Assembly: GCA_015062345.1 (NCBI GenBank)
Contig: SUUV01000005.1
Location: forward strand, 5,175-69,174
Length of the DNA: 64,000 bases
From: Alphaproteobacteria bacterium
GTDB lineage: Bacteria > Pseudomonadota > Alphaproteobacteria > RF32 > CAG-239
Direction: 5' to 3'
Below the pieces are notes generated by a model. That model had not been told where the DNA came from. It saw only the letters and a list, made by a program, of their open reading frames with translations, and ran no database searches. A program made the translations under genes and the position numbers. Within the stretch, counting starts at the first letter, position 1. Each line of letters begins with the position of its first letter. Shown here piece after piece: positions 3,354-58,201 of this stretch.

Positions 3354-3833
3354 TTAGTAAGTTACGGTTAAACTAATTGTTGTATCGAGTGTTGCTGTCG
3401 GAAAATTGGCAGGTATATGCAAATCCGCCCATATATAACCGTCAGAGTTTATACTGATATTATCAATATAAGCATATTCCTCATCGGAATTACCGGTAAG
3501 AAAATAAAATTTTCCACTTTGATCATCCATTCCTTCTGTTCTTCCCCATCCGACAATGTTTACTCCATCTTCACTTGATATACCGGAACAATATCCTGCA
3601 CTTCCACCAAATACACTTATAATATCACCACTTGGAGTGAAATCAGATGCACTTAATACTGATTCGGCATTATTTTTTTTAAGATAAATTGTACCAAAAT
3701 CCAAAGGAGAACAAGTAATTTGATTTACATGTTCTATTTTTGCATATACTTCGGCAGTTAGCGATGCGTTATCAGCATTTGCGGTGCCTGAAATCATCAA
3801 AGCAACAGCGCTTAAAAGAAAATATTTTCTCAT
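3354..3833 (-). CDS. Secreted SCPU-domain (Csu/archaic pilin-like) family protein, paralog 1
   Basis: Signal peptide MRKYFLLSAVALMISGTANA. Mature N-terminal motif A.V.A.I......CSPLDFGTIYLKK and C-terminal LHIPANFP...TISLTVTY, matching the SCPU pattern (Cys...FG.Y near the N-terminus; IPA...G.Y....T.TVTY at the C-terminus). One of 7 paralogs in the window. Confidence 0.6.
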   Translation of the reverse strand: MRKYFLLSAVALMISGTANADNASLTAEVYAKIEHVNQITCSPLDFGTIYLKKNNAESVLSASDFTPSGDIISVFGGSAGYCSGISSEDGVNIVGWGRTEGMDDQSGKFYFLTGNSDEEYAYIDNISINSDGYIWADLHIPANFPTATLDTTISLTVTY

Positions 3834-3966
3834 ATGTTTTAATCCTTAAAAATAGTTAAACTTAATTTGAAAGGCAAAAATTTACCTTACAATACGCATC
3901 ATAAACCGTTTTTTTTTTGCAAGTAAAAAGAGTCGTTTAAAGAATTTAAATCAAATTTGAGGTAAA
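3834..3966 (-). promoter_or_regulatory. Conserved family promoter/leader cassette (copy A) with T10 homopolymer (3909-3918)
   Basis: Near-identical to cassettes at 9733-9866, 44814-44953, 45863-45993 and 57547-57694. On the gene strand it reads TTGCAA-(A)n-CGGTT-TATGAT...AAGGA-ATG. The tract is 10 here and 12 in the other four copies. Confidence 0.6.
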
Positions 3967-4045
3967 AAATCATTTGTAAAAAACTTGCTTTTTTAAATCA
4001 ATGTGGTATAGAAAAATAAATTAAAATTTGCTTTAAGGAATTTAT

Positions 4046-6310
4046 ATGAAACAAGAACTCTTGGCGCCGGCAGGTGATATTGAAGCCGGATATGCGGCTC
4101 TGTATTATGGTGCAGATGCGGTTTATTTGGGCTTGCAAAAATTTTCGGCTCGTGCAACTGCTACAAACTTTGATGAACATAATTTAAATCAGTTTACGGC
4201 CTATGCACATCATTTGGGGCGAAAAGTATATGCCGCAATCAATACGGTTGTACAAGAAGATGAACTGCCTGATTTATTAAAAATATTAGATGTTTGTTCA
4301 AAATGCAACATAGATGCGGTTATATTGCAAGATTTGGGCGTGGCCCGTGTCATTAAACAATCGTATCCCGAACTTGAGTTGCACGCCAGTACACAAATGG
4401 CTGTTCATAACAAAGAAGGTGCGTTGTTTTTACAAAGTGTGGGCTTTTCCAGAGTTGTTTTGGCTCGTGAACTGACTTTGCCCGAAATTAAAGAAATCGC
4501 CTCAATTGAAGGTCTGGAAACCGAAGCCTTTATTCATGGTGCGTTGTGCTATTCTTATAGCGGATTATGTCAGTTTTCGGCTCTTGAAATCGGACGCAGT
4601 GCCAACAGGGGAAAATGTTTGTACCCTTGCAGAGCATGTTTTGAAAAAAACGGCATCAACAAACATTTCTTTTCAATGAAAGATATGGCTCTCGGTATTG
4701 ATGTCTTAAAAATGCCGGTTACTTCGCTTAAAATTGAAGGTCGTAAAAAAAGCGCACTTTATGTTGCCGCCGTAACCGATTATTACAGGCATATTTTAGA
4801 CGGCAAGGGGGCAGATTATCAAAAAGAAGAACGCATTAAACAAATTTTTTCTCGTCCGTGGTGTAAGTTTCATTTTAACGGAAAATCAAAAGATATTATC
4901 GACAGAGAGTTTGTCGGACACAGAGGATTAAAAATCGGTAAAATCGGCCGAATTTCAAAACAAGGCATTGAGATAAAGCTAAATCATAAAATCGGTCGGT
5001 TTGACGGTTTGCAAATTGATGTCAAAGGCAATGAAAAACCTTTCGGGTTTTCGATACAGAACATTAAACTGAACTCTAAAAATGTTTTTGAGGCCGCAAC
5101 CGGTGATGTCGTTCAAATCGAACTGCCGAAAAAATATCCAAATCTTGAAAAAGGGCTTGATGTATATCTGGCCTCATCAACCGAAGTTAAGGCATCTTAT
5201 CCGTATAAAAAGCCGAAACAAAATGAGTTTATCAATGGTATCAATCTTGATGTAAAGGTTGAGGTTTATCAAGATAACATATTGGCAAAATGTGATAATT
5301 TTGTTTCAAGTGTTGGCGGAAGCTTTGATAAGGCGCAAGATTTATCAAAAGTAACCTTGGCTTTTAAACAAGCATTTGAGAAAACCGGCGGAACTGAATT
5401 TTCATTAAAATCCATAAGTGTAGAAAACTCAGGTAGACTTTTTGTGCCTGTATCAAAAATCAATGAACTGAGGCGAGATTTATACTCTAAAATTGTGCCT
5501 TGCCACAAAAAGGGAACATTACCGACAATCAGCAAAAAAGAAAATGCCGGCTTTAAGGGGTGGATAATTAAAACCGATGATATAAAATGTTTAGAACAAT
5601 TAAATTTGGCCGATTTTGCAGAAATTGTTTATTTGATAAATCCAAAATCTGATGTTTCCGAACTTAAAAAATTGCCCAAAAACAAAGTGCGTATTGCTTT
5701 ACCTGAAGTTTGCCGTAAACCGAAAGTTTTTGAGCCGATTATAAATTCGCTCATCGAGTGCGGATATAAAAAATGGGAAATCGGCAATTATTGGGGGTTT
5801 AGTGCTTTGCCGACCGAAAAACTTGATATTTCGCTTTCATCATCTGTGTATATGCTAAACTCACAAGCTGTTGAACATGCAAAAGAAATGAAAGTTAAAA
5901 GAGTTTGTTTTTCCATTGAAGATACTTTAAGTAATATTAATCTGTTAAATGAAAAAATTTCCTTAACATCTTGTTTTATCGTATATCAAGATGCACCGCT
6001 GTTTATCAGTGCAGGTTGTATCAGAGATTATGATTGTAAAAACTGCAAAGGCGGGGTTGAAATTGCAGAGCTTAAAAAAGATGGCAGAATATATACGGCC
6101 ATATCCCAAAATTGTCAGTTAATGATGTTTAATGACAAGCCGTTATGTTTTGCTGATGAAGCAAAAAATGTTAAGGCAGATTTTTATCGTATGGACTTTT
6201 GCCATAAAAAATATGATGCGTTTAGGGTAAAACAAATTGCCGATAAGTTGATGAATTTTACAGATATTAACGGTTGTGTAAAAGCCAATATTAACAGTCA
6301 AAAAATTTGA
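4046..6310 (+). CDS. U32 family peptidase (long form with C-terminal extension)
   Basis: 754 aa. N-terminal region typical of U32 peptidases (LLAPAGD...AGADAVYLG...; conserved E..H..C.SYSG.C motif EAFIHGALCYSYSGLC). Confidence 0.75.
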   Translation: MKQELLAPAGDIEAGYAALYYGADAVYLGLQKFSARATATNFDEHNLNQFTAYAHHLGRKVYAAINTVVQEDELPDLLKILDVCSKCNIDAVILQDLGVARVIKQSYPELELHASTQMAVHNKEGALFLQSVGFSRVVLARELTLPEIKEIASIEGLETEAFIHGALCYSYSGLCQFSALEIGRSANRGKCLYPCRACFEKNGINKHFFSMKDMALGIDVLKMPVTSLKIEGRKKSALYVAAVTDYYRHILDGKGADYQKEERIKQIFSRPWCKFHFNGKSKDIIDREFVGHRGLKIGKIGRISKQGIEIKLNHKIGRFDGLQIDVKGNEKPFGFSIQNIKLNSKNVFEAATGDVVQIELPKKYPNLEKGLDVYLASSTEVKASYPYKKPKQNEFINGINLDVKVEVYQDNILAKCDNFVSSVGGSFDKAQDLSKVTLAFKQAFEKTGGTEFSLKSISVENSGRLFVPVSKINELRRDLYSKIVPCHKKGTLPTISKKENAGFKGWIIKTDDIKCLEQLNLADFAEIVYLINPKSDVSELKKLPKNKVRIALPEVCRKPKVFEPIINSLIECGYKKWEIGNYWGFSALPTEKLDISLSSSVYMLNSQAVEHAKEMKVKRVCFSIEDTLSNINLLNEKISLTSCFIVYQDAPLFISAGCIRDYDCKNCKGGVEIAELKKDGRIYTAISQNCQLMMFNDKPLCFADEAKNVKADFYRMDFCHKKYDAFRVKQIADKLMNFTDINGCVKANINSQKI

Positions 6311-7124: not shown

Positions 7125-7134
7125 GGCTTAAAAA

Positions 7135-8692: not shown

Positions 8693-8699
8693 TATGAAA

Positions 8700-8732
8700 A
8701 CCCCCAAGGCCTGATAACAAGCCTTGGGGTAA
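8700..8732. terminator. Bidirectional hairpin terminator between era (+) and an SCPU gene (-)
   Basis: cccaaggc-ctgataacaa-gccttggg. On the minus strand it is followed by GGGGGTTTTCAT. Confidence 0.5.
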
Positions 8733-8752: not shown

Positions 8753-9223
8753 TTAGTAAGTAAATGTGATATATGCTGTTCCGTATAAAGCAGAGCCGCT
8801 GCTTATGACAGCATCAGGAGTGATGTTAAGTGAGCCGGTTAATTTTCCGTCAGCATATTTTATGTTGTCAACATAAACACTGTCACCACCTCCTAATTTG
8901 ATTACACTATCAGCATTAAAAGTGGTACCTTCTGGGATATCAGAACAGGTTGACGGAGTTGCAGTCGTTCCATCAAAAACCAACTCATAAGCACCGGCGG
9001 TATCCATTGTAACTGTGCCATTGCTGTTCATTGTGGCGGTCATAGTGCCGGTGTTCTCGGTTTTTTTAACATATAATTTGCCAAATACGAGGCTTGTGCA
9101 ACTAACTTCGGTCGGCAGAATAAATCTGCCTTTGGCAGAGAACTCAGCCGCGGCTTTAGTTGCGGCATTTGCGGTATTTGTTGCCAAGAGGGCTACACAA
9201 GATAAAATAAAATATTTTTTCAT
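8753..9223 (-). CDS. Secreted SCPU-domain family protein, paralog 2 (second gene of a tandem pair)
   Basis: Signal peptide MKKYFILSCVALLATNTANA. Motifs CTSLVFGKLYVKK and C-terminal AYITFTY. It lies 24 nt downstream of paralog 3 with no separate cassette, so it is probably co-transcribed. Confidence 0.55.
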   Translation of the reverse strand: MKKYFILSCVALLATNTANAATKAAAEFSAKGRFILPTEVSCTSLVFGKLYVKKTENTGTMTATMNSNGTVTMDTAGAYELVFDGTTATPSTCSDIPEGTTFNADSVIKLGGGDSVYVDNIKYADGKLTGSLNITPDAVISSGSALYGTAYITFTY

Positions 9224-9246: not shown

Positions 9247-9732
9247 TTATTCATAGGTAAATTGCACAACAGCAGTACCTGTTAATTCAGAGCCGTCTAA
9301 GACAGTATCATCACCATCATAATAGATGCTAAGTTTTCCGGTTAATTTACCGTCGGCATATTTTATGCTATTAACAAAAATTTTTTCTGCCTCATCGAGA
9401 TAAATCTTGTTATCATCACCAACTGTAAAAGTAGCACCATCAGGTAAACCTGTACAAGTTCCCGGAGTGCCTTGACCATCAAATAGCAAGGAATACTTAC
9501 TAGGCGAGGTGTTTGTAATTGTGCCGTTCACGTCCATCATAAAATAGGAAACACCAGAATAAGTACTATCAGTCATTCCAAAATACAAAGTACCAAAATC
9601 GATAGGCGTGCATTCAATAATGGTTGGTTCAATGATGGTAGCAGAAGCTTTAAGGTTGCTTGTTCCATCGGTGGCATTGGCTGTGGAGGCAGCCATCAAA
9701 GCCACAGCGCTCAAAAGAAAATATTTTCTCAT
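9247..9732 (-). CDS. Secreted SCPU-domain family protein, paralog 3
   Basis: MRKYFLLSAVALMAASTANA signal; CTPIDFGTLYFG; IKYADGKLTGKL; C-terminal AVVQFTYE. Confidence 0.6.
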   Translation of the reverse strand: MRKYFLLSAVALMAASTANATDGTSNLKASATIIEPTIIECTPIDFGTLYFGMTDSTYSGVSYFMMDVNGTITNTSPSKYSLLFDGQGTPGTCTGLPDGATFTVGDDNKIYLDEAEKIFVNSIKYADGKLTGKLSIYYDGDDTVLDGSELTGTAVVQFTYE

Positions 9733-9866
9733 ATGTTTTAATCCTTAAAAAAAGTTAAACTTAATTTGAAAGGTGCAAAAATTTACCTTTCACATCACAT
9801 CATAAACCGTTTTTTTTTTTTGCAAGTAAAAAGAGTCGTTTAAAGAATTTAAATCAAATTTGAGGT
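9733..9866 (-). promoter_or_regulatory. Conserved family promoter/leader cassette (copy B) with T12 homopolymer (9810-9821)
   Basis: Same cassette as copy A; the tract is 12 nt. Confidence 0.6.
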
Positions 9867-9870
9867 AGAG

Positions 9871-10140
9871 GTGCTGTCTCCTTTACTATCATACCGGTGC
9901 CCAAGCTTTAGCTTGGAATAGACACCGGTATTTAAGGGAACAATTTAGCTATATTACCACCTGGACTCCGGCATCAAGTGCCGGAGTGACAGTGAGGAGT
10001 CGGACTCCGGTATCTTCGTATCGGAGTGACAGTTAGGAGGTATGTTGCAAAGTATGAGGCTAAAAACAAATATTTTCCGATTTTAAATAAAAGTCATTTT
10101 TCGTCCTGCACTGCGTGTCAGGTCGAAAACGCATCTGATT
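9871..10140. repeat. Structured ~270-bp repeat element, left copy of an inverted pair (partner 45595-45850)
   Basis: Reverse-complement match to 45595-45850 over roughly 250-270 bp with few mismatches. It contains nested hairpins (accggtg[cccaagc-ttta-gcttgg]aatagacaccggt) and two CCGGCATCAAGTGCCGG-AGTGACAGTGAGGAG units. Confidence 0.7.
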
Positions 10141-17239: not shown

Positions 17240-17695
17240 CTAATATGTGTATGTGATGGTAAACGAGCCGGTATAAATGCCGGCTTGCACTTTTTCGGGA
17301 ATATCTAATGTGCCGTTGATTTGTGCGTTGTCGGCTGAAATTTCGGATAAAGTAAGAGATGTTTCTCCGGTTTCATTTTTTAAAATCACCGTTTGCGGAA
17401 ACTTAATCGATTGTGCACTTGAAGTATCGGATATATTTTCGCATAGTGAATTTTTGTAACCGTTTACCGATACAATATCCGGATTGTCATAATCGGCATT
17501 GCCGTTTGTAAGTCTGATGGAAGCTTTAGAGTTATTTTCTTTTAGGGTGATGGTGCCAAAATCAAGCTCATTACATTCAAACCGATTGGCAAAGACAATG
17601 GTTGCTTTTACTTTTATCTCGGCATACGATTTTATTTTTGCGTTTACCGAATCTGCCAGCAATATTAAAAAAAGTGCCCAAAAAAATGTCTTCAT
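17240..17695 (-). CDS. Divergent SCPU-like family member (paralog 4)
   Basis: Signal MKTFFWALFLILLADSVNA; CNELDFGTITLKEN; C-terminal IYTGSFTITYTY. The upstream region is only partly similar to the family cassette and its homopolymer is A6. Confidence 0.5.
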   Translation of the reverse strand: MKTFFWALFLILLADSVNAKIKSYAEIKVKATIVFANRFECNELDFGTITLKENNSKASIRLTNGNADYDNPDIVSVNGYKNSLCENISDTSSAQSIKFPQTVILKNETGETSLTLSEISADNAQINGTLDIPEKVQAGIYTGSFTITYTY

Positions 17696-17869
17696 AAATT
17701 ACCTGCCATAAATGTGTTTAAGATGCAAACATATTTAATGACAGGTAACTTGTTTTAAAGTATCGGTTTATATACCAAATGGAATAGGTTGAAAACGAAA
17801 AAACTTACTTTTAACATCGTATTATAAAATGTTTTTTAAGTAAAAAGAATCTGTTTACATATTTAAATC

Positions 17870-17905
17870 AAAAAATAGATATCCCCAGTAGACTGGGGAT
17901 ATCTA
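17870..17905 (-). terminator. Rho-independent terminator after the small membrane-protein gene
   Basis: Perfect hairpin agatatcccc-agtagac-ggggatatct, followed on the minus strand by TTTTTTGATTT. Confidence 0.6.
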
Positions 17906-18790: not shown

Positions 18791-19903
18791 ATGAATTTAA
18801 TTGAAACAATTACCGATTTAATCGGTTTTAAAAGTGTGACGGGCAACAGCTCCGAAATTGATAATTGCTTACATTATATCTATGATAAAGCGACCAAATT
18901 CGGTGCTGATGTGAATATATATCGGTTTGAAGATGCTTCTCCGGTAATTATGGCAACAAATACTTATGCTCAAAATTTTGATGTGTTGATATTAGGGCAT
19001 ATTGATGTTGTTCCGGCAGATGAAAATATGTTCAAACCGATTATTAAAGAAAACAAAATGTTCGGCAGGGGAACTTTAGATATGAAATCTTTTGCCGCCG
19101 TTGCCTTAAACTCTTTAGAATATGTAATAAAAAACAAGTTGGATTTAAAATTCGGTTTTGTGCTTTCAACCGATGAAGAAACCGGAAGTAAAAGCACTAA
19201 GGCATTTTTAGAAAAATTCCCCAATATCAGTGCAAAAATTGTTTTAGATAACGATGTCGGAGGGGATATCACAAAAATTGTGGCAAGATGTAAAAATCCG
19301 GTATTTGTTAAGCTAATATCCAAAGGCAAAGCTGCCCACGGTTCAACACCGTGGAATGGTATTGATGCCAATGAAAATTTGTTTCAAACTTGGCAAAATA
19401 TCAGAAAATTTTATCCTTATTATTCAATCGATACCAATGAACCGACTGATAAATGGATAGATACCGTTCATTTTGCAACAATTAACGGAGGAGGCGTTTC
19501 TAATATAATTGCCGATTCGGCCTGCGCACTTTTAGATTTTCGTTTAACCGAAAATTCGAGTGTGGACAATTTATGCATTACATTAGATAAATGCATGGAA
19601 AATCAAGTCGGTTATGAAATTGTCTCAGCTTCAACACCGGTAGTTATGGATGAAAACAACAAATATATCAGAGCTTATAAAGAATATGCTCAAAGCATAT
19701 TAGGTAAAACAATTGATTTTGAATATATCGGCGGGGCAACCGACTCGAGAGAATTTGCGCAAAAAGGCTCAATTGTGATTATGCATTCGGGCACGGGAGA
19801 CGGTATGCACGCAAATAACGAATATGTTGATCTTACATCTGTTGAACAAATTGCTAAAATACAAATCGGCTTTTTGGAGAAACTTGCAAATCAGAAAATT
19901 TAA
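18791..19903 (+). CDS. M20-family metallopeptidase/deacylase (ArgE/DapE-like)
   Basis: GHIDVVPA metal-binding motif, GRGTLDMK, and a dimerisation-domain-like middle region. Confidence 0.75.
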   Translation: MNLIETITDLIGFKSVTGNSSEIDNCLHYIYDKATKFGADVNIYRFEDASPVIMATNTYAQNFDVLILGHIDVVPADENMFKPIIKENKMFGRGTLDMKSFAAVALNSLEYVIKNKLDLKFGFVLSTDEETGSKSTKAFLEKFPNISAKIVLDNDVGGDITKIVARCKNPVFVKLISKGKAAHGSTPWNGIDANENLFQTWQNIRKFYPYYSIDTNEPTDKWIDTVHFATINGGGVSNIIADSACALLDFRLTENSSVDNLCITLDKCMENQVGYEIVSASTPVVMDENNKYIRAYKEYAQSILGKTIDFEYIGGATDSREFAQKGSIVIMHSGTGDGMHANNEYVDLTSVEQIAKIQIGFLEKLANQKI

Positions 19904-19970
19904 ATATTACTTGCCAAATTTGTAAAGCAAGTATACAATAAAGTACAGATTTTAATAAGGAGAACTATAA

Positions 19971-20297
19971 ATGAAAAAACTTATATTTACCGTTTTATTA
20001 GCTTCTGGTGTTACATTTGCCGCAAATGCCGGTGTCACTTTTTTACCCAACGCATCAGGAAATGTCGGAACAAGTGTGAAAAATAATCAATTAAGCAGTG
20101 AGCAAAAATGTAAAAATGCCGGATACAAACAATCAAACTGCCCGTCATCTCAAAAAGGAATTTCCCAATGTCCGTACAACAATTCATATTATAAATATTG
20201 TTGTCCGAAAGAATATCAATTCACGGTTAAAGAGTGTGTTAAAAACGGCTTAAGAGCATCTCGCAACAGTTGTGGCGGATTGTATAAATGTTTGTAA
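19971..20297 (+). CDS. Small secreted cysteine-rich protein (108 aa; 10 Cys in the mature part)
   Basis: Signal peptide MKKLIFTVLLASGVTFAANA, then a Cys-rich domain. Hairpin terminator at 20326-20356. Confidence 0.5.
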   Translation: MKKLIFTVLLASGVTFAANAGVTFLPNASGNVGTSVKNNQLSSEQKCKNAGYKQSNCPSSQKGISQCPYNNSYYKYCCPKEYQFTVKECVKNGLRASRNSCGGLYKCL

Positions 20298-20325
20298 ATT
20301 AAAAAAGTTATCAACAATCGTTAAG

Positions 20326-20356
20326 AAGCTCCGAGAAAAACGGAGCTTATTTTATA
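20326..20356 (+). terminator. Rho-independent terminator
   Basis: gctccg-agaaaaa-cggagc followed by TTATTTTAT. Confidence 0.55.
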
Positions 20357-20473
20357 TCTTATTTGAAAGATTTTCTTGACACATTGTAAACTTAATGCTA
20401 ATTGAAAAACCCTAATGTGTGGATTTAACCAACTTGTCCGGCACTATAAACGGACTAAAAAGGAGAACTTAAA

Positions 20474-30435: not shown

Positions 30436-30512
30436 TGGTCGGGACGAGAGGATTTGAACCTCCGACTTCTTGCACCCCATGCAAGCGCTCTACCAGGCTG
30501 AACTACGTCCCG
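30436..30512 (-). tRNA. tRNA-Pro (anticodon GGG)
   Basis: The reverse complement gives a 77-nt cloverleaf: CGGGACG acceptor, GGTTCAAATCC T-arm, anticodon loop AUGGGGU, encoded CCA end. Confidence 0.8.
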
Positions 30513-30728
30513 TTATTATAACATAAATATACTTTTATCTCTTGGTGCAAGAAGTCTCCGACTTCTTGTCTTGCTTCGTAAAATTCGCTTTTATAAAAAG
30601 CTCATTAACTCCGCTTCGGTCAAAGAACTTATAACATTCGCTTCGTTCGCTTCTCGCTTCTCGCTCATTAACAAGTTCTTTCTTGAAATTAGATAAACTA
30701 TCCGTTGGGAAACTTTATCTAATTTCAA

Positions 30729-30778
30729 CCCCATGCAAGCGCTCTACCAGGCTGAACTACGTCCCGTTATTATAACAT
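30729..30778 (-). repeat. Duplicated fragment of tRNA-Pro (5' 38 nt of the tRNA plus 12 nt of flank)
   Basis: Exact copy of 30475-30524. Further direct repeats of aacattcgcttcgttcgcttctcgct...caagttcttt lie at ~30613-30670 and ~30774-30815. An inverted tRNA-derived palindrome lies at 30545-30572. Confidence 0.7.
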
Positions 30779-30848
30779 TCGCTTCGTTCGCTTCTCGCTC
30801 ATTACAAGTTCTTTAAGTTAAAAGCACCAATCACGGTGCTTCAAACAG

Positions 30849-30936
30849 TGGCGGAGCGTATAGGACTCGAACCTATGCATCGCTATTCACGATGACGGAT
30901 TAGCAATCCGCTGCATTACCACTCTGCCAACGCTCC
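30849..30936 (-). tRNA. tRNA-Ser (anticodon GCU), class II with long variable arm
   Basis: The reverse complement gives GGAGCGU...anticodon loop UUGCUAA...long extra arm...GGTTCGAGTCC...CGCUCCGCCA (88 nt). Confidence 0.75.
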
Positions 30937-33765: not shown

Positions 33766-34778
33766 TTTGCTTTCCTTGTGTCAAAAGCATCTCTAACACC
33801 CTCACCTATAAAAATCAGCATACTTAACAAACTTGACAATACAATAAAAATCGTTACCCCAATCCATGGAGCTTGTAAGTTGTCTTTTCCTTGTCTGACC
33901 AAATCACCAAGTGAGGGATAATCTCCGGATAAGCCCAAACCCAAAAAATCGAGCGAAGTTAAAGCTACTATCGATTCTGATAAAATAAACGGAATAAATG
34001 TAACACTGGTTACCAATGCATTAGGTAATATATGCTTAAATATAATTCTAAAGTTGCTCACACCTAAGGCTTTTGCGGCTTTTACATATTCAAAATTGCG
34101 AGTTCGTAAAAACTCGGCTCTTACCATAGAAGTTAAAGAAGTCCATGAAAAAAGCATCAAAATTATCAACAAAGTCCAAAAGTTAGGTAAAAAGACACTT
34201 GCAATGATAATTAAGATAAAAAGTTGTGGTAAAGACTCCCACACTTCAATGAATCGTTGCAAAATTATATCGGTTTTACCGCCGAAATATCCCTGAACAG
34301 CGCCAATAACAATACCGATAAGCGATGACACAAATGTCAATATAAAAGCAAATACAACCGACAATCTGATACCATACAGGATGCGAGCCACAATATCCCT
34401 TCCCTCATCATCGGTACCGAGCCAATGCGTTTTATCTGGTTTGGTCGGAGCCGGAGCATCAATTTCGTAGTCAACCGTATTGTAAGAAAATGGTATAATC
34501 GGCATTATCATCCAACCGTTATTTTGTATATTTGATACAATCAGCGGGTCTTTATAATCGGCAGGTGTAGGAAAATCACCACCGAAAAACTCGTCTGTAT
34601 ATTCGGTAAATATCGGAAAATACAGCTCATTTTCATATTTTATCACCAATGGTTTATCATTGGCTAAAAGTTCGGAAAATAACGATAAAATAAAAACAAT
34701 CATAAACAAGACCAAAGCCGTAAGTGCCCGTTTATTATTTTTAAATGATGCTATTTTTCTTTTTAATACCGGATTCAT
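33762..34778 (-). CDS. ABC transporter permease (OppC/YejE-like)
   Basis: 338 aa with 6 TM segments and an N-terminal periplasmic loop. Overlaps the ATPase gene start by 4 nt. Confidence 0.75.
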   Translation of the reverse strand: MNPVLKRKIASFKNNKRALTALVLFMIVFILSLFSELLANDKPLVIKYENELYFPIFTEYTDEFFGGDFPTPADYKDPLIVSNIQNNGWMIMPIIPFSYNTVDYEIDAPAPTKPDKTHWLGTDDEGRDIVARILYGIRLSVVFAFILTFVSSLIGIVIGAVQGYFGGKTDIILQRFIEVWESLPQLFILIIIASVFLPNFWTLLIILMLFSWTSLTSMVRAEFLRTRNFEYVKAAKALGVSNFRIIFKHILPNALVTSVTFIPFILSESIVALTSLDFLGLGLSGDYPSLGDLVRQGKDNLQAPWIGVTIFIVLSSLLSMLIFIGEGVRDAFDTRKAK

Positions 34779-36769
34779 TAATTTTCCTTATTTTGCATCA
34801 AATTGTGGTTTTTTAAGGTCGGAATATGGTACTCAAATGTATCATTGGCTTTTTTATCGGTTTTTTCCTTTATAATATCAACCTTGTTCATATCATTTTT
34901 GTTCAACGAGAGCCAGTTTTGATACCATTTATTAAATATATTAATATTGTTTTTTATTTCATTAGGTTTAATTTCTCTTTGCTTAAGTTCTTTAACGATT
35001 TTGTTTCTGATACTTGTGCTAAAACCAAGTTCGCTTAAATTATCACATACATTAGCATTATACAAAAAATTATTTACGACATCGGTTGATGTGCATATCT
35101 TGTTATTTACCGTAAATTTTTTAATCTGAGGTGATTTAATTGCCAGAGCAACCATTTTATCATAGATAAATCTTTGAGAAAAATTTGTATTTTTGGTGTC
35201 GGCAAAATTATGATTTGCTCCGACACCGCTTATAATCAGAACTGTTTTATCCGAAAGATTAGCAGCTTCGAGCTTATCAACAAATTCTTGCAATTTGCCG
35301 TATAAACATCTTGTTTGCTCGGTATAAGATTTGTATTTAAGCTCATTTTTATTATCTGCAATCCACGGCAGATTGTCCATATTAACCCATTTTTCACGAG
35401 GTTTAATGCGGCAAAATTCATCATATATAAACATATCTGACGGAATGTCCGCATATACAAAATATGCTTTTCGTCCGGTATCGGATAGTATGTTTTCAGC
35501 TAGGACATCAAATGTTTTTATCGAATTAATCACATACAAATTGTTATAATTTATGCCAACCAGAGGAAGCTTTTCAGGCTCGGAAAATATCTTTAAAAAT
35601 CTGTATAAAGGAGCCAAATTTGAAATATTCATACTGGCCACCCATTCCGCAAACAAAAGTTGTGTACGACTTATTACCGAAATTCCGCTATCATATACAT
35701 TTACGGGACGATTTATTTTTTCCACACATCGGTCCACATTAAATTTATGATTTTTGTGGCATATGTCAATCCCTCTTGATTTGTATGCCGAAACATTATA
35801 TCCGGCTTGTTTGAAACTATCAAACAATTGATTATTTTGTAAGAAAATATGCTCATCATTGGTGTTAAAAAACTTCCAGTACCTGCTTAACAACATTGTG
35901 TTAAGTATGTGTTTTTTCGGTTCTTGATTGCTGTTGGTGTTAACCAGTTGAACAACATCTAAAAATTGGTCATCTTGTTTTGCATATGTATTTGGAAAAA
36001 TCTCAAATTTATTTTTAGCTAAAAATCCGGTAGCAACATTGAATGTACTTTTAGATAACAAGCTATCATCATTGGCAAAATATTTGTACGAGGCAAAATT
36101 CGGTAGCATAATATAGATGAACTTATTATCATGTTTAATATTAGGTTTGTTTTCTTGCAAATTGTTTTGCTCAATAAAATCGTGTTGTAATTTATATTCC
36201 GAATAATCGTGGCCGATAATTCCGATAAAAGCAATTAAAAATAAAAAAACATATATCGAAAATATTTTTAACGATGCCTTAAAAGCAATCCAAATAAACA
36301 AAATTGTTATAATCAGAGCCAAGACAACCACAGAAGATGTGTATAAAAATGTGGGCGTAAATTTGCCTAAATAAGAGCCCAAAAAATTGCCTATAAAACT
36401 TTTTGAATCCGATTGATAAAACTGATTAAAAAGTGTAATTACAAACCAATAAGTCAGCAATGCACAAACAATGTTTTGTAATGTCGGACACTTATAAAAA
36501 AACCCGATTACAACAACGGAAAACAAGCAAATAAAGAACAAAAGCAACAAAATTTCATAAAACACCATACCGTTATGAGTAAAAAGTGCCATATTTCCCG
36601 ATGTTGCAAACAAAACCATATTTATTGACAGCAACAAAAAAACATACAGGCTTTTTAGTATAAAGCCGATAGTTGCTTTTGATATTTTAATTTTTTCAGG
36701 AACTTTACAAGCTCTTGAAAATTTTTCGGAATCAAAAGTGAGCGGAGCTCTAAAGCGTCGTCTTTGCAT
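34778..36769 (-). CDS. Polytopic membrane protein with large C-terminal extracytoplasmic domain (possibly phosphotransferase/sulfatase-like)
   Basis: 663 aa. About 5 N-terminal TM helices, then a ~450-aa hydrophilic domain. I could not place a confident family motif. Confidence 0.35.
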   Translation of the reverse strand: MQRRRFRAPLTFDSEKFSRACKVPEKIKISKATIGFILKSLYVFLLLSINMVLFATSGNMALFTHNGMVFYEILLLLFFICLFSVVVIGFFYKCPTLQNIVCALLTYWFVITLFNQFYQSDSKSFIGNFLGSYLGKFTPTFLYTSSVVVLALIITILFIWIAFKASLKIFSIYVFLFLIAFIGIIGHDYSEYKLQHDFIEQNNLQENKPNIKHDNKFIYIMLPNFASYKYFANDDSLLSKSTFNVATGFLAKNKFEIFPNTYAKQDDQFLDVVQLVNTNSNQEPKKHILNTMLLSRYWKFFNTNDEHIFLQNNQLFDSFKQAGYNVSAYKSRGIDICHKNHKFNVDRCVEKINRPVNVYDSGISVISRTQLLFAEWVASMNISNLAPLYRFLKIFSEPEKLPLVGINYNNLYVINSIKTFDVLAENILSDTGRKAYFVYADIPSDMFIYDEFCRIKPREKWVNMDNLPWIADNKNELKYKSYTEQTRCLYGKLQEFVDKLEAANLSDKTVLIISGVGANHNFADTKNTNFSQRFIYDKMVALAIKSPQIKKFTVNNKICTSTDVVNNFLYNANVCDNLSELGFSTSIRNKIVKELKQREIKPNEIKNNINIFNKWYQNWLSLNKNDMNKVDIIKEKTDKKANDTFEYHIPTLKNHNLMQNKEN

Positions 36770-36833: not shown

Positions 36834-37490
36834 TTACTGCCTATCCACAAATCCGACCACATTTTTCACAATTTGATTTATAACCTCGTTTATATTGACA
36901 TTTTCATCACGGTCCTTAACGGCAATTCTTGTCGCAAACGCATCACCTGTTTTCAAAAGAGAATATGCTTTTAAGCAAGATACCGCAACAATTGCCTGTT
37001 CTAAGGTTGTTGCCTTCATCTCAATTTTTTCGGTTTTATCATTTAATGTCATTAAAATAAGTTTGTTTTCATAGTCTTTTTTAATATCAATACCCAGATA
37101 TGACATATTGGCTATTTCTTTATATGCTTGCTTAAGCGGAAGATTATATAATCTTATGGCATATTTTAAGGCTATGGTTAAAGCCACATAAGGCTTGTAA
37201 GATTTTAACTCGCTTTCATAATTTTTAGTTTTAAACACCACACATTCTGTTTTGGTCTCCGTCAAGCAAGATTGCACAAATAAGGCAACCGCAAACAAAT
37301 TTGATGAAAAAAGCTTGCAATTGTTTTTAATCAATACAATTTGCTCATCAGAATATTTTTCCAAAACTTCAACGGCAAAATTGCGATACTCACAAAAAGA
37401 TTGCGGATTTTGGTTTAAAATCTCAACCACCGGTCTTTTTTGGTTTAAAAATTCATCATTGTCATTTTTATCAAAAGCAATTTCAAGCAT
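36834..37490 (-). CDS. Hypothetical protein (start placed at internal Met with AAGGGA upstream; the ORF extends to 37595)
   Basis: Intact ORF; no recognised motif. Confidence 0.35.
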   Translation of the reverse strand: MLEIAFDKNDNDEFLNQKRPVVEILNQNPQSFCEYRNFAVEVLEKYSDEQIVLIKNNCKLFSSNLFAVALFVQSCLTETKTECVVFKTKNYESELKSYKPYVALTIALKYAIRLYNLPLKQAYKEIANMSYLGIDIKKDYENKLILMTLNDKTEKIEMKATTLEQAIVAVSCLKAYSLLKTGDAFATRIAVKDRDENVNINEVINQIVKNVVGFVDRQ

Positions 37491-37629
37491 ACAACATAGT
37501 CCCTTGTTATTATAATTGATAATTTTAGCCGTTAAAAATCTTATGTCAAGAACTAAAACTCTTGATTTTGTGTAAACAAAGTTATATCGTCGCAAAAAAT
37601 TACTTGAACTAAAACAAAGGAACTGTCAA

Positions 37630-44280: not shown

Positions 44281-44291
44281 CGGTTTTATAA

Positions 44292-44326
44292 AACACCGCC
44301 TCTTTCATAAGAGGCGGTGGGTTTGT
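44292..44326 (+). terminator. Rho-independent terminator after thyA
   Basis: caccgcctct-ttcata-agaggcggtg followed by GGTTTGT. Confidence 0.5.
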
Positions 44327-44378: not shown

Positions 44379-44813
44379 TTAATAAGTCCTTGTTAATGTA
44401 AATGAACCTTCGTATACTCCTGCTGCAACATTAGCGGGGATATGTAATGCTGTAAACAAGCTGTTCATCTCGTTTGAAGCACCATATACAAGTGTCAAAA
44501 CATCATCACTGGTTGAAGATAAAAGGTCTAGAGTATTCTCTATATCATCATTACCAAAATCGTTCACATTGCACACAACATCTCCGCTTCCACTCATGGA
44601 TATAAAATCTTCACTTTCACTCATATTATCTTCAATTACCATATCTTCATTGTCTTGTTTAACAACAATAGTACCATAATCAAGGTTGTTACAAGTAAAA
44701 GTGCCTGCTACTTGAATTGTTGCCTTAGCGGTTACTTCTGCGTAGTCGGTGGTTGCGTTGGCGGTGCTTGTGAGCATTAAAGCCACAGCTGATAAAAGAA
44801 AATATTTTCTCAT
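44379..44813 (-). CDS. Secreted SCPU-domain family protein, paralog 5 (acidic, Asp/Glu/Ser-rich)
   Basis: MRKYFLLSAVALMLTSTANA; CNNLDYGTIVVKQDN; LHIPANVAAGVYEGSFTLTRTY. Confidence 0.6.
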   Translation of the reverse strand: MRKYFLLSAVALMLTSTANATTDYAEVTAKATIQVAGTFTCNNLDYGTIVVKQDNEDMVIEDNMSESEDFISMSGSGDVVCNVNDFGNDDIENTLDLLSSTSDDVLTLVYGASNEMNSLFTALHIPANVAAGVYEGSFTLTRTY

Positions 44814-44953
44814 TTTTAAAATTCCTTTACAAAAATAGTTAAACTTAATTTGAAAGGCAAAAATTTACCTTTCACATCGCATCATAAACCGTTTTTTTTT
44901 TTTGCAAGTAAAAAGAGTCTAATTGTGGATTTAAATCAAAAATGAGGTAAAAA
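44814..44953 (-). promoter_or_regulatory. Conserved family promoter/leader cassette (copy C) with T12 (44892-44903)
   Basis: Same cassette. Confidence 0.6.
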
Positions 44954-45594: not shown

Positions 45595-45850
45595 GATGTT
45601 TTTCTGACCTACCGCACAGCGCAGGTCGAAACATAACTTTTATTTAAAATCGGAAAATATTTGTTTTTTATCCTCATACTTTGAAACCGCCTCCTAACTG
45701 TCACTCCGGCACTTGATGCCAGAGTCCGCCTCCTCACTGTCACTCCGGCACTTGATGCCGGAGTCCAGGTGGTAATATAGCTAAATTATTCCCTGGATAC
45801 CGGTGTCTATTCCAAGCTAAAGCTTGGGCACCAGTATGACGGTGATGAGA
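45595..45850. repeat. Structured ~270-bp repeat element, right copy (inverted relative to 9871-10140)
   Basis: Reverse-complement match to the left copy. Contains two tandem ~36-bp units (ctgtcactccggcacttgatgcc[a/g]gagtcc), each with a CCGGCA...TGCCGG hairpin. Confidence 0.7.
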
Positions 45851-45862
45851 GAGACACCTCTA

Positions 45863-45993
45863 CATCAAATTTGATTTAAATCCACAAATAGACTCTTTTT
45901 ACTTGCAAAAAAAAAAAACGGTTTATGATGTGATGTGAAAGGGCATTTTTGCACCTTTCAAATTAAGTTTAACTATTTTTAAGGATTAAAATT
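45863..45993 (+). promoter_or_regulatory. Conserved family promoter/leader cassette (copy D) with A12 (45907-45918)
   Basis: Same cassette on the + strand: cTTGCAA(A)10CGGTT-TATGAT...AAGGATTAAAATT-ATG. Confidence 0.6.
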
Positions 45994-46470
45994 ATGAGAA
46001 AATATTTTCTTTTATCTGCCGTTGCTCTCTTGGCTGCAACATCTGCAAATGCAACCACCGATTACGCTGAAGTAACAGCTCGTGCTACCATTGAAGTGGC
46101 TGGTAAAATAAGTTGTACTGATATGAACTTCGGCACTATCGTTGTTAAAAAAGACAATGCAGAATCTGTTGTAGATATGAACTATATCTTTAATGACGAG
46201 TCTTATTGGGATGTATCTACTCAAGGTGATATTATATCCATAACAGGATACGATTTAACAAAATGTGAAAATGGCTTTCTTGCTATGGGTGACCCATATC
46301 ATCCGGAATTTCCGAGCGAAATTACTTTATCTAACGGTACAAGCAAGATTACTGTAACCGATGTGTATTATGATGGAGAAAAAGTATCTTCAGCCAAATT
46401 ACACATTCCGGCAAAGGTAACCGGTGGAGAATATACAACATCATTTACTATCCAACAGGTAATGCCATAA
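45994..46470 (+). CDS. Secreted SCPU-domain family protein, paralog 6
   Basis: MRKYFLLSAVALLAATSANA; CTDMNFGTIVVKKDN; KLHIPAKVTGGEYTTSFTIQQV. Confidence 0.6.
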   Translation: MRKYFLLSAVALLAATSANATTDYAEVTARATIEVAGKISCTDMNFGTIVVKKDNAESVVDMNYIFNDESYWDVSTQGDIISITGYDLTKCENGFLAMGDPYHPEFPSEITLSNGTSKITVTDVYYDGEKVSSAKLHIPAKVTGGEYTTSFTIQQVMP

Positions 46471-46484: not shown

Positions 46485-46524
46485 CAAAACCCCGTTGATT
46501 TTCATCAACGGGGTTTTTATATTT
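46485..46524. terminator. Bidirectional terminator between convergent genes
   Basis: aaaaccccgttgat-tttc-atcaacggggtttt, with T-runs on both strands. Confidence 0.6.
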
Positions 46525-51866: not shown

Positions 51867-51867
51867 G

Positions 51868-56740: not shown

Positions 56741-56821
56741 AAAACCGCCCTTTAGAAAGAAAAGAGCGGTTAAATTTATTTTAAAAAAAATACAGCCCCG
56801 CTTATATGCAGGGCTATAAAA

Positions 56822-57487
56822 TCAAACTTCAACTTCGATTTCGGGATTTCCTCCCTTCCAGTCTTCGATGATTATACCGAAACCGGCACCGATGCTTAAA
56901 TTTTCATAATACTTAATTTCACTTGATGATTGTTGTACAAACTCCGATTCTCCGCTTTTGAGCAAAACAGCATATTCAACCGTCCAAACTTTGTATTCGG
57001 TATTATCAATATTTTCATCAGCTAACTGTTTAACTCTTGTTTCTTCAAGAACAGTTGCGCTCACTTCAGGCACCGGCATTAAATGTGAATCATTGCCTAC
57101 CTTGTAATAAGCCCTTTCCTGTTGATAATAGCAAGGAACTTCCAATCCGTAACTTTCTAGGATAACCGTATATTGCCATGTCTCATATCGAAATTTGCGG
57201 TCTTCTCTGCTGCTGACAACTTTGTCGGGAGCAATTTTTTTAACCGTAAATTTTCTTTCCGGTACAAAAGTACTTACAAGCACGGGTATGTTTTTGGTAT
57301 GAACTGCCTTAACCGGCGAAAGCTTGGCAGTAACCGTATACCCATTAATTTGAGCCTTACTGTATACCGCATCTTCGGTAACTTCATAGCCCAAATTTTC
57401 AACATCATCAGCCGACATAAAGTCTACCAGTGTACAGCTTGTCATCAAAAACAATGCCATAACAACATAATAAATAATATTTTTCAT
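56822..57487 (-). CDS. Lipoprotein of unknown function (221 aa)
   Basis: Signal plus lipobox (LMTSC). Confidence 0.4.
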   Translation of the reverse strand: MKNIIYYVVMALFLMTSCTLVDFMSADDVENLGYEVTEDAVYSKAQINGYTVTAKLSPVKAVHTKNIPVLVSTFVPERKFTVKKIAPDKVVSSREDRKFRYETWQYTVILESYGLEVPCYYQQERAYYKVGNDSHLMPVPEVSATVLEETRVKQLADENIDNTEYKVWTVEYAVLLKSGESEFVQQSSSEIKYYENLSIGAGFGIIIEDWKGGNPEIEVEV

Positions 57488-57546
57488 AATTTTAAAAAAA
57501 TTGGTTTATACCTAGGATGTACAACAAATAACCATTTTTGTCAACA

Positions 57547-57694
57547 AAATATTTTACCTCATTTTTGATTTAAATCATTTAAACGACTCTTTTTACTTGC
57601 AAAAAAAAAAAACGGTTTATGATGCGTCTTGAAAGGTAAATTTTTGCACCTTTCAAATTAAGTTAAACTATTTTTTATGTAAGGAATTAAAAAA
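57547..57694 (+). promoter_or_regulatory. Conserved family promoter/leader cassette (copy E) with A12 (57601-57612)
   Basis: Same cassette. Confidence 0.6.
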
Positions 57695-58201
57695 ATGAGA
57701 AAATATTTTCTACTTTCTGCTGTGGCAGTATTAATGGCAACAAATGTAAATGCTGAAACTGGAACAGCATTTGCGGAGATAAATACATATGCTGAAATAG
57801 AATATGCATACGAAGTATCTTGTAGTGAGATGAATTTTGGTAAAATAATATTAAAAAACAATAAACAAGACAGTTGGGTAACCGCAACAGGTACTTATAG
57901 CGAAAATGTTTTATCTGTTACAGGTAATACAATAGCTCTCTGCAGTTCAGACGATGAAGAACTTATAGAGGCTATGGTAGAAGCTCTAAATCACCCTGAA
58001 GCAAATGGTTATACCTTAACAACATCTGATTTTGACCCTGAAAATGGTGTTGGTGGTATGATAAATATAGGCGAATATGTGGCAAAATCACATGTGGGTC
58101 CAAATGACTCCGATGCCGGAATAAGTGCCACAATATATATTCCTGAAGGAGCTCCTGCCGGTATATATACCGGTTATGTTCCAGTTAGCATAGTTTACTA
58201 G
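57695..58201 (+). CDS. Secreted SCPU-domain family protein, paralog 7
   Basis: MRKYFLLSAVAVLMATNVNA; CSEMNFGKIILKNN; IYIPEGAPAGIYTGYVPVSIVY. Confidence 0.6.
   Translation: MRKYFLLSAVAVLMATNVNAETGTAFAEINTYAEIEYAYEVSCSEMNFGKIILKNNKQDSWVTATGTYSENVLSVTGNTIALCSSDDEELIEAMVEALNHPEANGYTLTTSDFDPENGVGGMINIGEYVAKSHVGPNDSDAGISATIYIPEGAPAGIYTGYVPVSIVY

Follow-up and report, generated by a model that had tools for sequence, protein, structure and literature searches.

A dispersed family of small secreted DUF4402 proteins with a shared upstream cassette in an uncultured gut alphaproteobacterium

Seven homologous genes scattered among housekeeping genes

The stretch of DNA analysed here (the window) is a 64-kb segment of a MAG with locus tags E7016_*, derived from an uncultured gut alphaproteobacterium. 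It contains seven genes, F1 to F7, that belong to one family of secreted proteins. Encoded on the minus strand are F1 (3354..3833; 159 aa; E7016_01840, identical to P0001), F2 (8753..9223; 156 aa), F3 (9247..9732; 161 aa; E7016_01870, identical to P0002), the divergent member F4 (17240..17695; 151 aa), and F5 (44379..44813; 144 aa); F6 (45994..46470; 158 aa) and F7 (57695..58201; 168 aa) are located on the plus strand. When a six-frame translation of the window was searched with a family HMM, with or without the signal peptide, exactly these seven genes were recovered (200 bits for F1) and the next match had an E value above 1. The same seven ORFs, which are the only copies in the window, had been singled out in a previous reading of this DNA, referred to below as the sequence-only reading.

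The copies are scattered among housekeeping genes, as that reading had described, and are monocistronic with the exception of F3 and F2. These two genes, previously taken for a simple tandem pair, form a bicistronic unit in which F2 lacks a promoter and a cassette of its own and is separated from the F3 stop codon by a gap of 23 nt that holds a ribosome-binding site (GAAAGGA). Most family units are closed by a terminator hairpin. Terminators are located at 44288-44319 behind F5 and at 46486-46520 behind F6, and terminator-like hairpins at 8696-8729 (F2) and 58216-58246 (F7).

Homology among the seven proteins extends beyond the signal peptide. Pairwise BLASTP comparison after removal of this segment yielded E values of 3e-28 for F2 and F3, of 1e-18 to 1e-22 among F4, F5, and F6, and of 1e-8 to 1e-11 for F1 and F7 against the latter group; the F2/F3 pair is linked weakly to the remaining family genes (1e-4 to 1e-5). 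The proteins start with a Sec-type signal peptide (MRKYFLLSAVAL...ANA), which is followed by a conserved amphipathic N-terminal strand (TDYAEVTAKATIEVA) and the N-proximal motif C..(L/M)(D/N)FGT(I/L). A hypervariable core, closed by two cysteines of which the second is likewise conserved, leads to the C-terminal motif (L)xIPxxxxxGxYTGxFTxTxTY with the conserved strand IPAxVxAGxYTGSFTVTxTY. Exactly two cysteines are present in the mature protein of 105 of the 119 members compared. Mean pairwise column identity amounts to 0.76 in the signal peptide, 0.56 in the N-terminal strand, 0.48 in the C..FGT segment, and 0.46 at the C-terminus, and drops to 0.20 in the core; both the motifs and the hypervariable centre recognised earlier are real.

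The family as a whole is far larger than these seven ORFs. At least 31 distinct E7016_* locus tags among the family matches represent copies in the source MAG, and 29 full-length copies are found within 345 kb of RGIG4267, a related MAG from roe deer colon. A total of 171 family cluster representatives was retrieved from 1.84 billion proteins, nearly all with the MRKYFLL signal peptide.

A conserved upstream cassette with a poly(A) tract

Essentially every copy in both the source MAG and RGIG4267 is preceded by a cassette that occupies the 130-139 nt upstream of the gene. It consists of a box, TTGCAA, a poly(A) tract, CGGTT, TATGAT, a 5'-UTR stem-loop of 6-7 bp, and a ribosome-binding site (AAGGA), in this order. 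The box carries the palindrome GATTTAAAT(C) about 22 nt upstream of TTGCAA. Assigned from sequence alone, TTGCAA and TATGAT are putative -35 and -10 hexamers, respectively.

On the minus strand, the cassette of F1 (3834..3963) comprises the box at 3944-3963, TTGCAA at 3917-3922, a poly(A) tract of 10 nt at 3909-3918, TATGAT at 3898-3903, and the hairpin at 3869-3890. The same elements are present upstream of F3 (9733..9866) at 9847-9866, 9820-9825, 9810-9821 (12 nt), 9799-9804, and 9768-9791, and upstream of F5 (44814..44948) at 44929-44948, 44902-44907, 44892-44903 (12 nt), 44881-44886, and 44852-44873. On the plus strand, they are located at 45862-45881, 45903-45908, 45907-45918 (12 nt), 45924-45929, and 45937-45959 in the F6 cassette (45862..45993), and at 57556-57575, 57597-57602, 57601-57612 (12 nt), 57618-57623, and 57631-57654 in the F7 cassette (57556..57694). 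F4 is preceded by a degenerate version (17821..17872, minus strand) that retains the box and has an A run of 6 nt only, TATAAT as the -10 element, and a longer leader; it is identical in three other samples. In one sample, TTTC replaces TTGC in the -35 hexamer of the F5 cassette.

Five exact matches to the cassette core were observed in the window, compared with 0 expected by chance. The arrangement TTGC-A(n)-CGGTTTA(T/A)GAT is retained in both of two cassette variants that differ in their upstream halves, and the 5'-UTR hairpin remains paired where its sequence varies, by way of G-U changes and, in a few cases, compensatory ones. Between copies, the cassette has a nucleotide identity of 0.82; the corresponding values are 0.56 for third codon positions in the signal peptide, 0.40 for the core, and 0.37 for the DNA further upstream. 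The cassette is more conserved than the coding sequence, a pattern that points to constraint on non-coding DNA rather than to recent duplication.

In all cassettes counted apart from the degenerate one of F4, the A tract between TTGCAA and TATGAT measures 8-14 nt. As read from assemblies, which report the majority allele only, it is 12 nt long in 24 of 32 copies and 8, 8, 9, 10, 10, 11, 11, and 14 nt in the others, all of which have intact hexamers; at A12 the hexamers are spaced by 15 bp. Comparison of the same loci across samples revealed A10 in both other samples for F1, and A12 in four of four other samples for F3, in all five loci spanning the tract for F5, and in two of two samples for F6. 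For F7, seven loci from other samples extend to the tract and have A12, and ERZ27248446 has A11 in a recombinant cassette with a different upstream flank. F3 and F7 are preceded by different upstream DNA in other samples, and the point of divergence lies at the cassette or within it; cassettes coincide with strain-to-strain rearrangement breakpoints. The sharp peak at 12 nt in two species, together with the near-constancy at individual loci, is as compatible with a fixed spacer under selection as with a switch.

Family identity and candidate assembly machinery

The sequence-only reading had assigned the seven proteins to the SCPU domain of archaic, Csu-type pilins and had expected a match to PF05229. 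In our Pfam searches, neither the seven window proteins nor any of 119 relatives matched this domain even at E values up to 1. What was found instead is DUF4402 (PF14352), which is matched by 100 of the 119 family members with a best E value of 2e-14. F4 is the top DUF4402 match of the window (32.4 bits with a curated cut-off of 25.2; E 1.7e-7; profile positions 7-129 of 129), and F7 (19 bits) and F5 (16.8 bits) score below the cut-off. F1, F2, F3, and F6 individually gave no DUF4402 match in Pfam, and their membership therefore rests on homology to other members of the family. Other weak Pfam matches, to generic β-sandwich domains, arise through the C-terminal motif (GH123_N, 33 members; MG2, 11 members).

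An hhalign comparison of the 119-sequence family profile with CsuA/B, whose sequence was confirmed to be identical to PDB 7ZL4_A, returned a probability of 0.1% (E 0.46), and the family profile matched no PDB sequence at E values up to 10. AlphaFold models of F4 (pLDDT 88.5) and F5 (pLDDT 85) both have a confident core, preceded by about 20 N-terminal mature residues which are devoid of secondary structure and have no place in the monomer (pLDDT 65-74 or 66-81). CsuA/B was not among the top 60 structural matches of the F5 model, and the Caf1 and CS6 subunits scored as high as or higher than CsuA/B-type pilins. Most likely, the seven ORFs belong to a group of small secreted DUF4402 proteins that has expanded in this lineage and whose members are predicted to adopt the incomplete Ig-like fold of chaperone-usher subunits. 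They may be called pilin-like in a looser sense than the one first proposed. DUF4402 is an unstudied family; the literature that we searched contains no mention of DUF4402 or PF14352.

The statement that the window harbours no chaperone or usher held when its 8 largest and 10 mid-sized ORFs were compared with Pfam. Sixteen of these 18 fall into families with housekeeping roles (TolB, U32 peptidase, LepB, RNase III, Era, AsmA, LptD, thymidylate synthase, AcrB, and others), whereas the remaining pair matched nothing in Pfam. No assembly machinery, and specifically no CsuC-type chaperone or CsuD-type usher, was detected in the 64-kb window or in the ~345 kb around the 29 copies of RGIG4267 by a Pfam scan that covered ORFs of at least 600 aa and ten ORFs of 214-299 aa that encode a signal peptide.

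Canonical DUF4402 operons from four unrelated lineages comprise 1-3 DUF4402 genes along with genes for a protein of 271-279 aa and one of 875-1026 aa. The 279-aa protein of the Telluria operon is a PapD_N protein (27.8 bits; Pfam cut-off, 23). The large protein cannot be recognised as an usher: with the Usher profile PF00577, one of 13 members gave a match (E 0.17), and no PDB usher was matched. Canonical DUF4402 proteins resemble those described here in size, signal peptide, C..FG motif, and the C-terminus G.Y.G..T.T..Y, features that are shared by the high-GC members in L071 and L073. By contrast, the genes of the present family occur as at least 30 unlinked, monocistronic copies, each with a conserved cassette, and their signal peptide is near-invariant. 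The window copies also lack the typical operon context, that is, a PapD_N-like protein and a protein of ~900-1000 aa. A candidate for the latter is encoded in L086, from the same lineage, by a gene that is convergent with an adjoining family copy. The C-terminal part of its 1090-aa product matches an HMM of the DUF4402-operon large proteins with an E value of 1.3e-15, and this HMM found no match among ~1300 other ORFs. The candidate is characterised from its last 307 residues, and the match, which covers a common β-sandwich domain (CarboxypepD_reg/SdrD_B), could be one at the domain level only. Because of this resemblance, the absence of a chaperone and usher probably does not extend to the whole genome.

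Possible function and relation to known systems

Most likely, the family provides interchangeable fibre or surface subunits whose expression is controlled copy by copy; function, polymerisation, and phase switching are what we infer here. After Sec export, the subunits would be passed to an assembly system whose genes lie elsewhere in the genome, a candidate being the DUF4402-type combination of a PapD_N chaperone and a ~1000-aa protein. Polymerisation may proceed by donor-strand exchange, with the conserved N-terminal strand filling the conserved A/F-strand groove of the next subunit. Since donor strand and groove are shared, any paralogue could join the same fibre or surface layer, within which the exposed variable core would differ from copy to copy. 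The cassette would determine, for each copy, whether it is expressed and at what strength. Through slippage in the poly(A) tract, the distance separating the -35 and -10 hexamers might change within the range of 11 to 17 bp, and the DNA flanking the genes could be reshuffled by recombination between cassettes. The outcome would be a repertoire of surface subunits that differ in antigenic or adhesive properties, of plausible use in the ruminant gut for evading phage or host antibody or for changing binding specificity. To this explanation as a whole, from the DUF4402 expansion and the donor-strand fibre to per-copy control and recombining flanks, we assign a probability of roughly 0.5. The variable surface-antigen repertoire envisaged in the sequence-only reading is plausible, and copy number, the conserved cassette, and the poly(A) tract strengthen it.

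A different, possible though doubtful view is that the proteins do not polymerise and are soluble or surface-attached β-sandwich proteins, acting for instance in ligand binding or as decoys, which are all expressed from one strong promoter design. The poly(A) tract would then be a fixed spacer or a bent-DNA element, and length differences would mark decaying or down-tuned copies. A tract of 12 nt in 75% of the copies in two species, stable by locus across samples, speaks for such a model, as do the weak matches to GH123_N and MG2 and the lack of machinery adjoining any of the ~36 copies examined. The model does not, however, account well for an N-terminal amphipathic strand that is conserved (0.56) and yet placeless in both monomer models, for the PapD_N chaperone tied to canonical DUF4402 genes, or for the candidate partner in L086.

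The lack of a chaperone or usher near any copy examined would also be expected if donor-strand polymerisation took place without dedicated helpers and the subunits reached the surface by another route. The type V pili of Bacteroidota are one chaperone-free donor-strand system. A further precedent has been published for archaeal cannulae (PMC12518558). We nevertheless regard this model as improbable because DUF4402 genes elsewhere occur together with genes for a PapD_N protein and a large partner, L086 from this lineage encodes a possible partner, and the machinery search covered part of the genome. Least probable of all, and already disfavoured, is that the proteins build an archaic (Csu/CupE-type) pilus as genuine SCPU-domain subunits, the genes for a CsuC/CsuD-like chaperone and usher being located elsewhere. 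CsuA/B and CupE1 (SCPU, PF05229), whose structures have been determined (PMC4654587, PMC9452303, PMC10104325), do share the layout of a donor-strand-like N-terminal segment followed by a cysteine, a disulfide, and a C-terminal Gly/Tyr strand (...G.Y....T.T.Y). However, a sequence-level relationship was not detected, as reflected by the PF05229 and DUF4402 counts and the hhalign result, and the structural score is not above that of Caf1 or CS6. Moreover, the partners of canonical DUF4402 proteins are not Csu-like, the large one lacking an Usher domain, and Csu genes form a single csuA/B-A-B-C-D-E operon whereas the family genes are dispersed.

Returning to the preferred model of interchangeable subunits, it is tempting to speculate, although we hold this only tentatively, that DUF4402 proteins in general are the subunits of an undescribed class of donor-strand-exchange fibres. 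Its module would consist of a PapD_N-type chaperone and a non-usher-like protein of ~900-1100 aa, and one clade of ruminant-gut Alphaproteobacteria would have expanded the subunit genes to at least 30 dispersed copies, each made independently switchable by a shared cassette whose poly(A) is prone to slippage. If true, this would represent a pilin-based system of antigenic or phase variation, on the scale of mycoplasma surface proteins, in a small-genome commensal.

In Bordetella pertussis, a 'fim box' is common to the promoters of the serotype fimbrial subunit genes fim2, fim3, and fimX, as is a C-stretch by which transcription is controlled (PMC1891110). As in the family described here, several subunit genes each have a conserved box and a homopolymeric tract, the length of which sets transcription in Bordetella (PMC1891110). 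The Bordetella subunits are interchangeable on one assembly machine. The assembly operon, fimBCD, is not linked to fim2, fim3, or fimX. The two systems differ in that Bordetella has 3-4 genes with a C-stretch, as compared with at least 30 genes with poly(A), and in that its subunits are classical pilins of the Fimbrial family for which chaperone and usher are known, whereas DUF4402 proteins have at most candidate machinery. Switching was shown experimentally in Bordetella, while the present cassette is known from its sequence.

In the Vlp multigene family of variable surface lipoproteins of Mycoplasma hyorhinis, each gene is reportedly switched on and off by a poly(A) tract that lies between its -35 and -10 elements, and the members are said to combine a highly conserved 5' region (promoter and signal peptide) with divergent mature regions. 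Vlps are lipoproteins with repetitive C-termini, encoded at one clustered locus of a wall-less bacterium. By contrast, the proteins described here are non-lipoprotein, β-sandwich proteins whose genes are dispersed in a Gram-negative genome.

The DUF4402 family and its copies

Seven open reading frames, F1 (3354-3833, -), F2 (8753-9223, -), F3 (9247-9732, -), F4 (17240-17695, -), F5 (44379-44813, -), F6 (45994-46470, +) and F7 (57695-58201, +), lie precisely where the sequence-only reading had placed them, and their homology extends past the signal peptide, as it had proposed. In BLASTP comparisons with the first 22 residues removed, F2 and F3 were linked at 3e-28 and F4, F5 and F6 to one another at 1e-18 to 1e-22; F1 and F7 matched the latter group at 1e-8 to 1e-11, and the F2/F3 pair was weakly connected to the other members (1e-4 to 1e-5). 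Whether or not the signal peptide was included, an HMM of the family recovered exactly F1 to F7 from the six-frame translation of the window, where no further copy was found, the next match having an E value >1.

Conservation is unevenly distributed along the protein. In a comparison of 119 relatives, the columns of the signal peptide have a mean pairwise identity of 0.76 and those of the amphipathic strand that follows it (TDYAEVTAKATIEVA) one of 0.56; the value is 0.48 around C..DFGTI, 0.20 for the protein core and 0.46 for the C-terminal motif (L)xIPAxVxAGxYTGSFTVTxTY. Exactly two cysteines are present in the mature protein of 105 of these relatives. The protein is presumably exported, with cleavage of its signal peptide. 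The representative library also contains four large proteins, P0152 (1689 aa), P0189, P0201 and P0205, with six to eight tandem stretches matching the family profile, so the family module occurs as a repeat in giant proteins as well; in three of the four these stretches correspond to the N-terminal part of the profile (strand plus C..FGT).

In Pfam the family belongs to DUF4402 (PF14352): F4 exceeds the curated cut-off, and 100 of the 119 relatives match. The name SCPU/Csu-type pilin (PF05229), under which the proteins had first been proposed, is therefore wrong at the sequence level: the Pfam scan of the window proteins and the 119 relatives yielded zero SCPU matches, and hhalign against CsuA/B (a sequence identical to 7ZL4_A) was null. 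A PDB sequence search with the family profile gave no matches, Foldseek against PDB returned nothing below E 0.7, and no mention of DUF4402 was found in the literature searched. In AlphaFold models of full-length F5 (pLDDT 85) and mature F4 (pLDDT 88.5, pTM 0.79) the beta-sandwich core is confident, whereas the conserved N-terminal strand is unstructured in each. The models weakly suggest an incomplete Ig fold of the pilin type, without particular affinity for the archaic class.

The seven-member family is real, yet larger than seven. NCBI proteins E7016_01840, E7016_01865 and E7016_01870, from a metagenome-assembled genome (MAG) labelled 'Alphaproteobacteria bacterium', have exactly the sequences of F1, F2 and F3, and among the family matches listed there are at least 31 distinct E7016_* locus tags, spread over many contigs. 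Since F4 to F7 are absent from the listed identifiers, the real copy number in this MAG is probably at least 35. Its locus tags reach at least 07820 in steps of five, which points to about 1,560 genes and would assign about 2% of the gene set to the family. RGIG4267, a related MAG from roe-deer colon, is the only species-representative genome with the signal-peptide pattern and has about 29 full-length copies in the 345 kb analysed. Searching 1.84 billion cluster representatives with the family profile returned only 171 proteins at E values up to 1e-3, nearly all starting with MRKYFLL, which argues for a narrow, strongly expanded clade. A tblastn search of plasmids with F4 gave nothing meaningful.

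The putative promoter and leader cassette

A conserved block of 130-139 nt stands in front of each transcription unit, a new observation beyond the sequence-only reading. In order, it consists of ACCTCAAATTTGATTTAAAT, nine variable nucleotides, GACTCTTTTTAC, TTGCAA, a poly(A) run, CGGTT and TATGAT; these are followed by seven nucleotides, GAAAGG..loop..CCTTTC, AAATTAAGTTTAACTATTTTT, AAGGA and the ATG. The core of this cassette occurs five times in the window, with 0 occurrences expected by chance. The version at F4 is degenerate, and F2 follows F3 without a cassette of its own. Nucleotide identity among the five canonical window copies is 0.82 within the cassette, but 0.56 for third codon positions in the signal peptide, 0.40 for the core and 0.37 for the sequence farther upstream, which argues that the non-coding block is itself under constraint. 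We infer from the sequence that the cassette contains the promoter hexamers and the transcription start. Two cassette variants of RGIG4267 that diverge upstream of the -35 hexamer both retain TTGC-A(n)-CGGTTTA(T/A)GAT, and this supports the promoter assignment. The 27 metagenome loci recovered in a scan with a 20-nt cassette core were discarded as chance matches on unrelated, mostly human-gut contigs.

The leader stem-loop comprises 6-7 bp, and G-U changes, along with a few compensatory ones, leave its pairing intact. In F5 this 5'-UTR hairpin was flagged by a simple scan as an intrinsic terminator or attenuator, but the stem is not followed by a U-run, and we treat it as a putative leader element. 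An Rfam scan of the window found only two tRNAs and none of its matches fell in a cassette. Four of the six transcription units (the F3-F2 pair, F5, F6 and F7) end in a terminator-like hairpin; the hairpin downstream of F1 has no T-run, and downstream of F4 none was seen.

Counted after TTGC, the A run is 12 nt long (A12) in 24 of 32 copies and 8, 8, 9, 10, 10, 11, 11 and 14 nt long in the remaining eight, a spread that shifts the hexamer spacing from 11 to 17 bp. The spacer of 15 bp that results from A12 is suboptimal by the E. coli sigma-70 standard, yet it is the conserved modal state, and for this reason an assignment of tract lengths to 'on' and 'off' was dropped. Tract length is constant per locus in nearly all samples, the exception being F7, with A12 in seven samples and A11 in one. 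Phase variation may operate on the family. A different kind of change is seen in L077, a metagenome copy of the F5 locus (JGI 3300032167), where the -35 hexamer is TTTCAA instead of TTGCAA (window 44902-44907) while the poly(A) and the other cassette parts are unchanged; this is possibly a promoter-down allele. Poly(A) is also carried by the vlp promoters of mycoplasmas, which resemble the one-cassette-per-gene design found here. The same likeness is seen in Bordetella, where the fim2, fim3 and fimX promoters consist of a fim box and a C-stretch (PMC1891110).

Cassettes also mark sites at which flanks differ between samples. In L056 (F3 locus, JGI 3300018495) and L062 (F7 locus, ENA ERZ27248446) the coding sequence and the downstream flank are as in the window, whereas the upstream flanks differ (compared with 9733-9870 and 57556-57694, respectively), with breakpoints at or inside the cassette; the poly(A) of L062 is A11, not A12. 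Many metagenome contigs (L057, L064-67, L076, L078, L080) terminate within the cassette. Flank swaps and contig ends together suggest that the repeat acts as a recombination substrate; in practical terms, it causes metagenome assemblies to break up and flags the points of rearrangement. A REP-like nested hairpin (ATACCGGTGTCTATTCCAAGCTAAAGCTTGGGCACCrGTAT) is located directly upstream of the F3 cassette (9891-9931, -) and the F6 cassette (45797-45837, +), and several RGIG4267 copies have similar sequence on their upstream side. Tandem units of 39 nt containing CACTCCGGCACTTGATGCCGGAGT adjoin these hairpins in the window (45687-45764, +; 9965-9994, -).

Candidate assembly partners and proposed interchangeable subunits

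The earlier statement that the window holds no chaperone or usher is borne out by the 18 ORFs scanned with Pfam (the eight largest and ten mid-sized ones). Sixteen belong to housekeeping-type families, including TolB, U32 peptidase, LepB, RNase III, Era, AsmA, PNP, thymidine phosphorylase, LptD, SurA, thymidylate synthase, a GNAT, MscS and AcrB, and two have no Pfam match. Likewise, Pfam found no PapD_N or Usher match in the scanned ORFs of RGIG4267 (about 620 to 1970 aa, with incomplete coverage at 560-710 aa) or in ten signal-peptide ORFs of 214-299 aa.

DUF4402 genes do occur in operons elsewhere. A survey that began from P0215, an outlying high-GC match, revealed such operons in four unrelated lineages (L068; L069/L071/L072; L073/L074, Telluria; L084/L085, Thermoanaerobaculia). 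One to three DUF4402 genes are combined with a secreted protein of 271-279 aa and a protein of 875-1026 aa; in some operons a 212-aa gene and an additional DUF4402 gene are also present. The 279-aa protein of Telluria exceeds the Pfam PapD_N cut-off (27.8 bits versus 23, E 2.7e-6). In the large protein only sandwich domains of the CarboxypepD_reg/SdrD_B type were seen; one of 13 had a weak Usher (PF00577) match (E 0.17), and none matched an usher in PDB. Our impression is that its motifs recall the N-terminal, plug and C-terminal motifs of ushers. Operon co-occurrence and the PapD_N match thus tie DUF4402 subunits to a PapD-like chaperone and a large partner of unclassified kind, a combination that suggests a divergent branch of chaperone-assisted fibre assembly.

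HMMs of the two operon partner proteins found no matches in the window or the RGIG4267 loci. On L086 (contig Ga0318466_10003894, same lineage), a gene for a 1090-aa protein converges with a family copy whose A12 cassette is normal. All domain matches of this protein derive from its last 307 residues (19524-20447, -). A CarboxypepD_reg domain (38 bits) lies in this stretch, which also matches the large-partner HMM (positions 717-878 of 901, E 1.3e-15). We regard the protein as a candidate assembly partner, a lead rather than proof.

Taking these data together, we propose, with a probability of about one half, that these proteins form a repertoire of fibre or surface subunits that are interchangeable and whose expression is controlled copy by copy. 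The proteins would be subunits of one polymer formed by donor-strand exchange, in which the conserved N-terminal strand would be donor-like and the disulfide-closed variable core would be exposed. Conserved N-terminal, A and F strands together with a variable core are the pattern expected of such subunits.

Secreted sandwich proteins that do not polymerise and are expressed from a fixed strong promoter are the next most plausible explanation, although we consider it rather unlikely; the tract length that is constant at nearly all loci is compatible with it, and the strand conservation favours exchangeable subunits. Self-assembly without a chaperone has a precedent (PMC12518558) and appears improbable here, DUF4402 subunits being tied to a PapD-like chaperone in other lineages. 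Even less probable are true SCPU pilins, which are contradicted by the Pfam and hhalign results.

The proposed repertoire of interchangeable subunits is a variation on two known themes, multigene families for surface variation and orphan pilin genes whose promoters bear a homopolymer, here built on an uncharacterised protein family. If true, it would provide the first functional handle on DUF4402 and would mean that about 2% of a small genome's genes are given to one hypervariable secreted family with a conserved expression cassette. Large-scale surface variation, familiar in pathogens, would then also be at work in uncultured gut commensals. The cassette itself represents a ready-made, testable promoter and leader module.

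Other features of the window and RGIG4267

RGIG4267 contains a second dispersed family (L004-L025), nine type IVb-pilin-like genes with the N-terminus GRSMVEMLGVLAIIGVLS... (Pfam PilS_N, Bundlin), exemplified by L006 654-1295 (-) and L010 16457-17128 (+) and scattered across the same regions as the DUF4402 copies. It also encodes a protein of 1176 aa whose N-terminus is prepilin-like (L011 4244-7771). Neither these pilin-like genes nor the 1176-aa protein were found in the window.

A 221-aa ORF (56822-57487, -) that lacks a Pfam match and has a signal peptide of lipoprotein type (…LMTSC) by appearance is divergent from F7, and its homologue (L009 10942-11607, +) is located about 5 kb from an RGIG4267 family copy. 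Two further ORFs without Pfam match, of 663 aa (34778-36769, -) and 253 aa (36834-37595, -), adjoin genes for an ABC-type permease (33762-34778) and a duplicated ATPase (32188-33765). Between the two tRNA genes (30439-30512 and 30852-30936; region 30439-30936, -) there are exact direct repeats of 51 nt (30474-30524 = 30728-30778) and 30 nt (30629-30658 = 30770-30799), which suggests a partial tRNA duplication.
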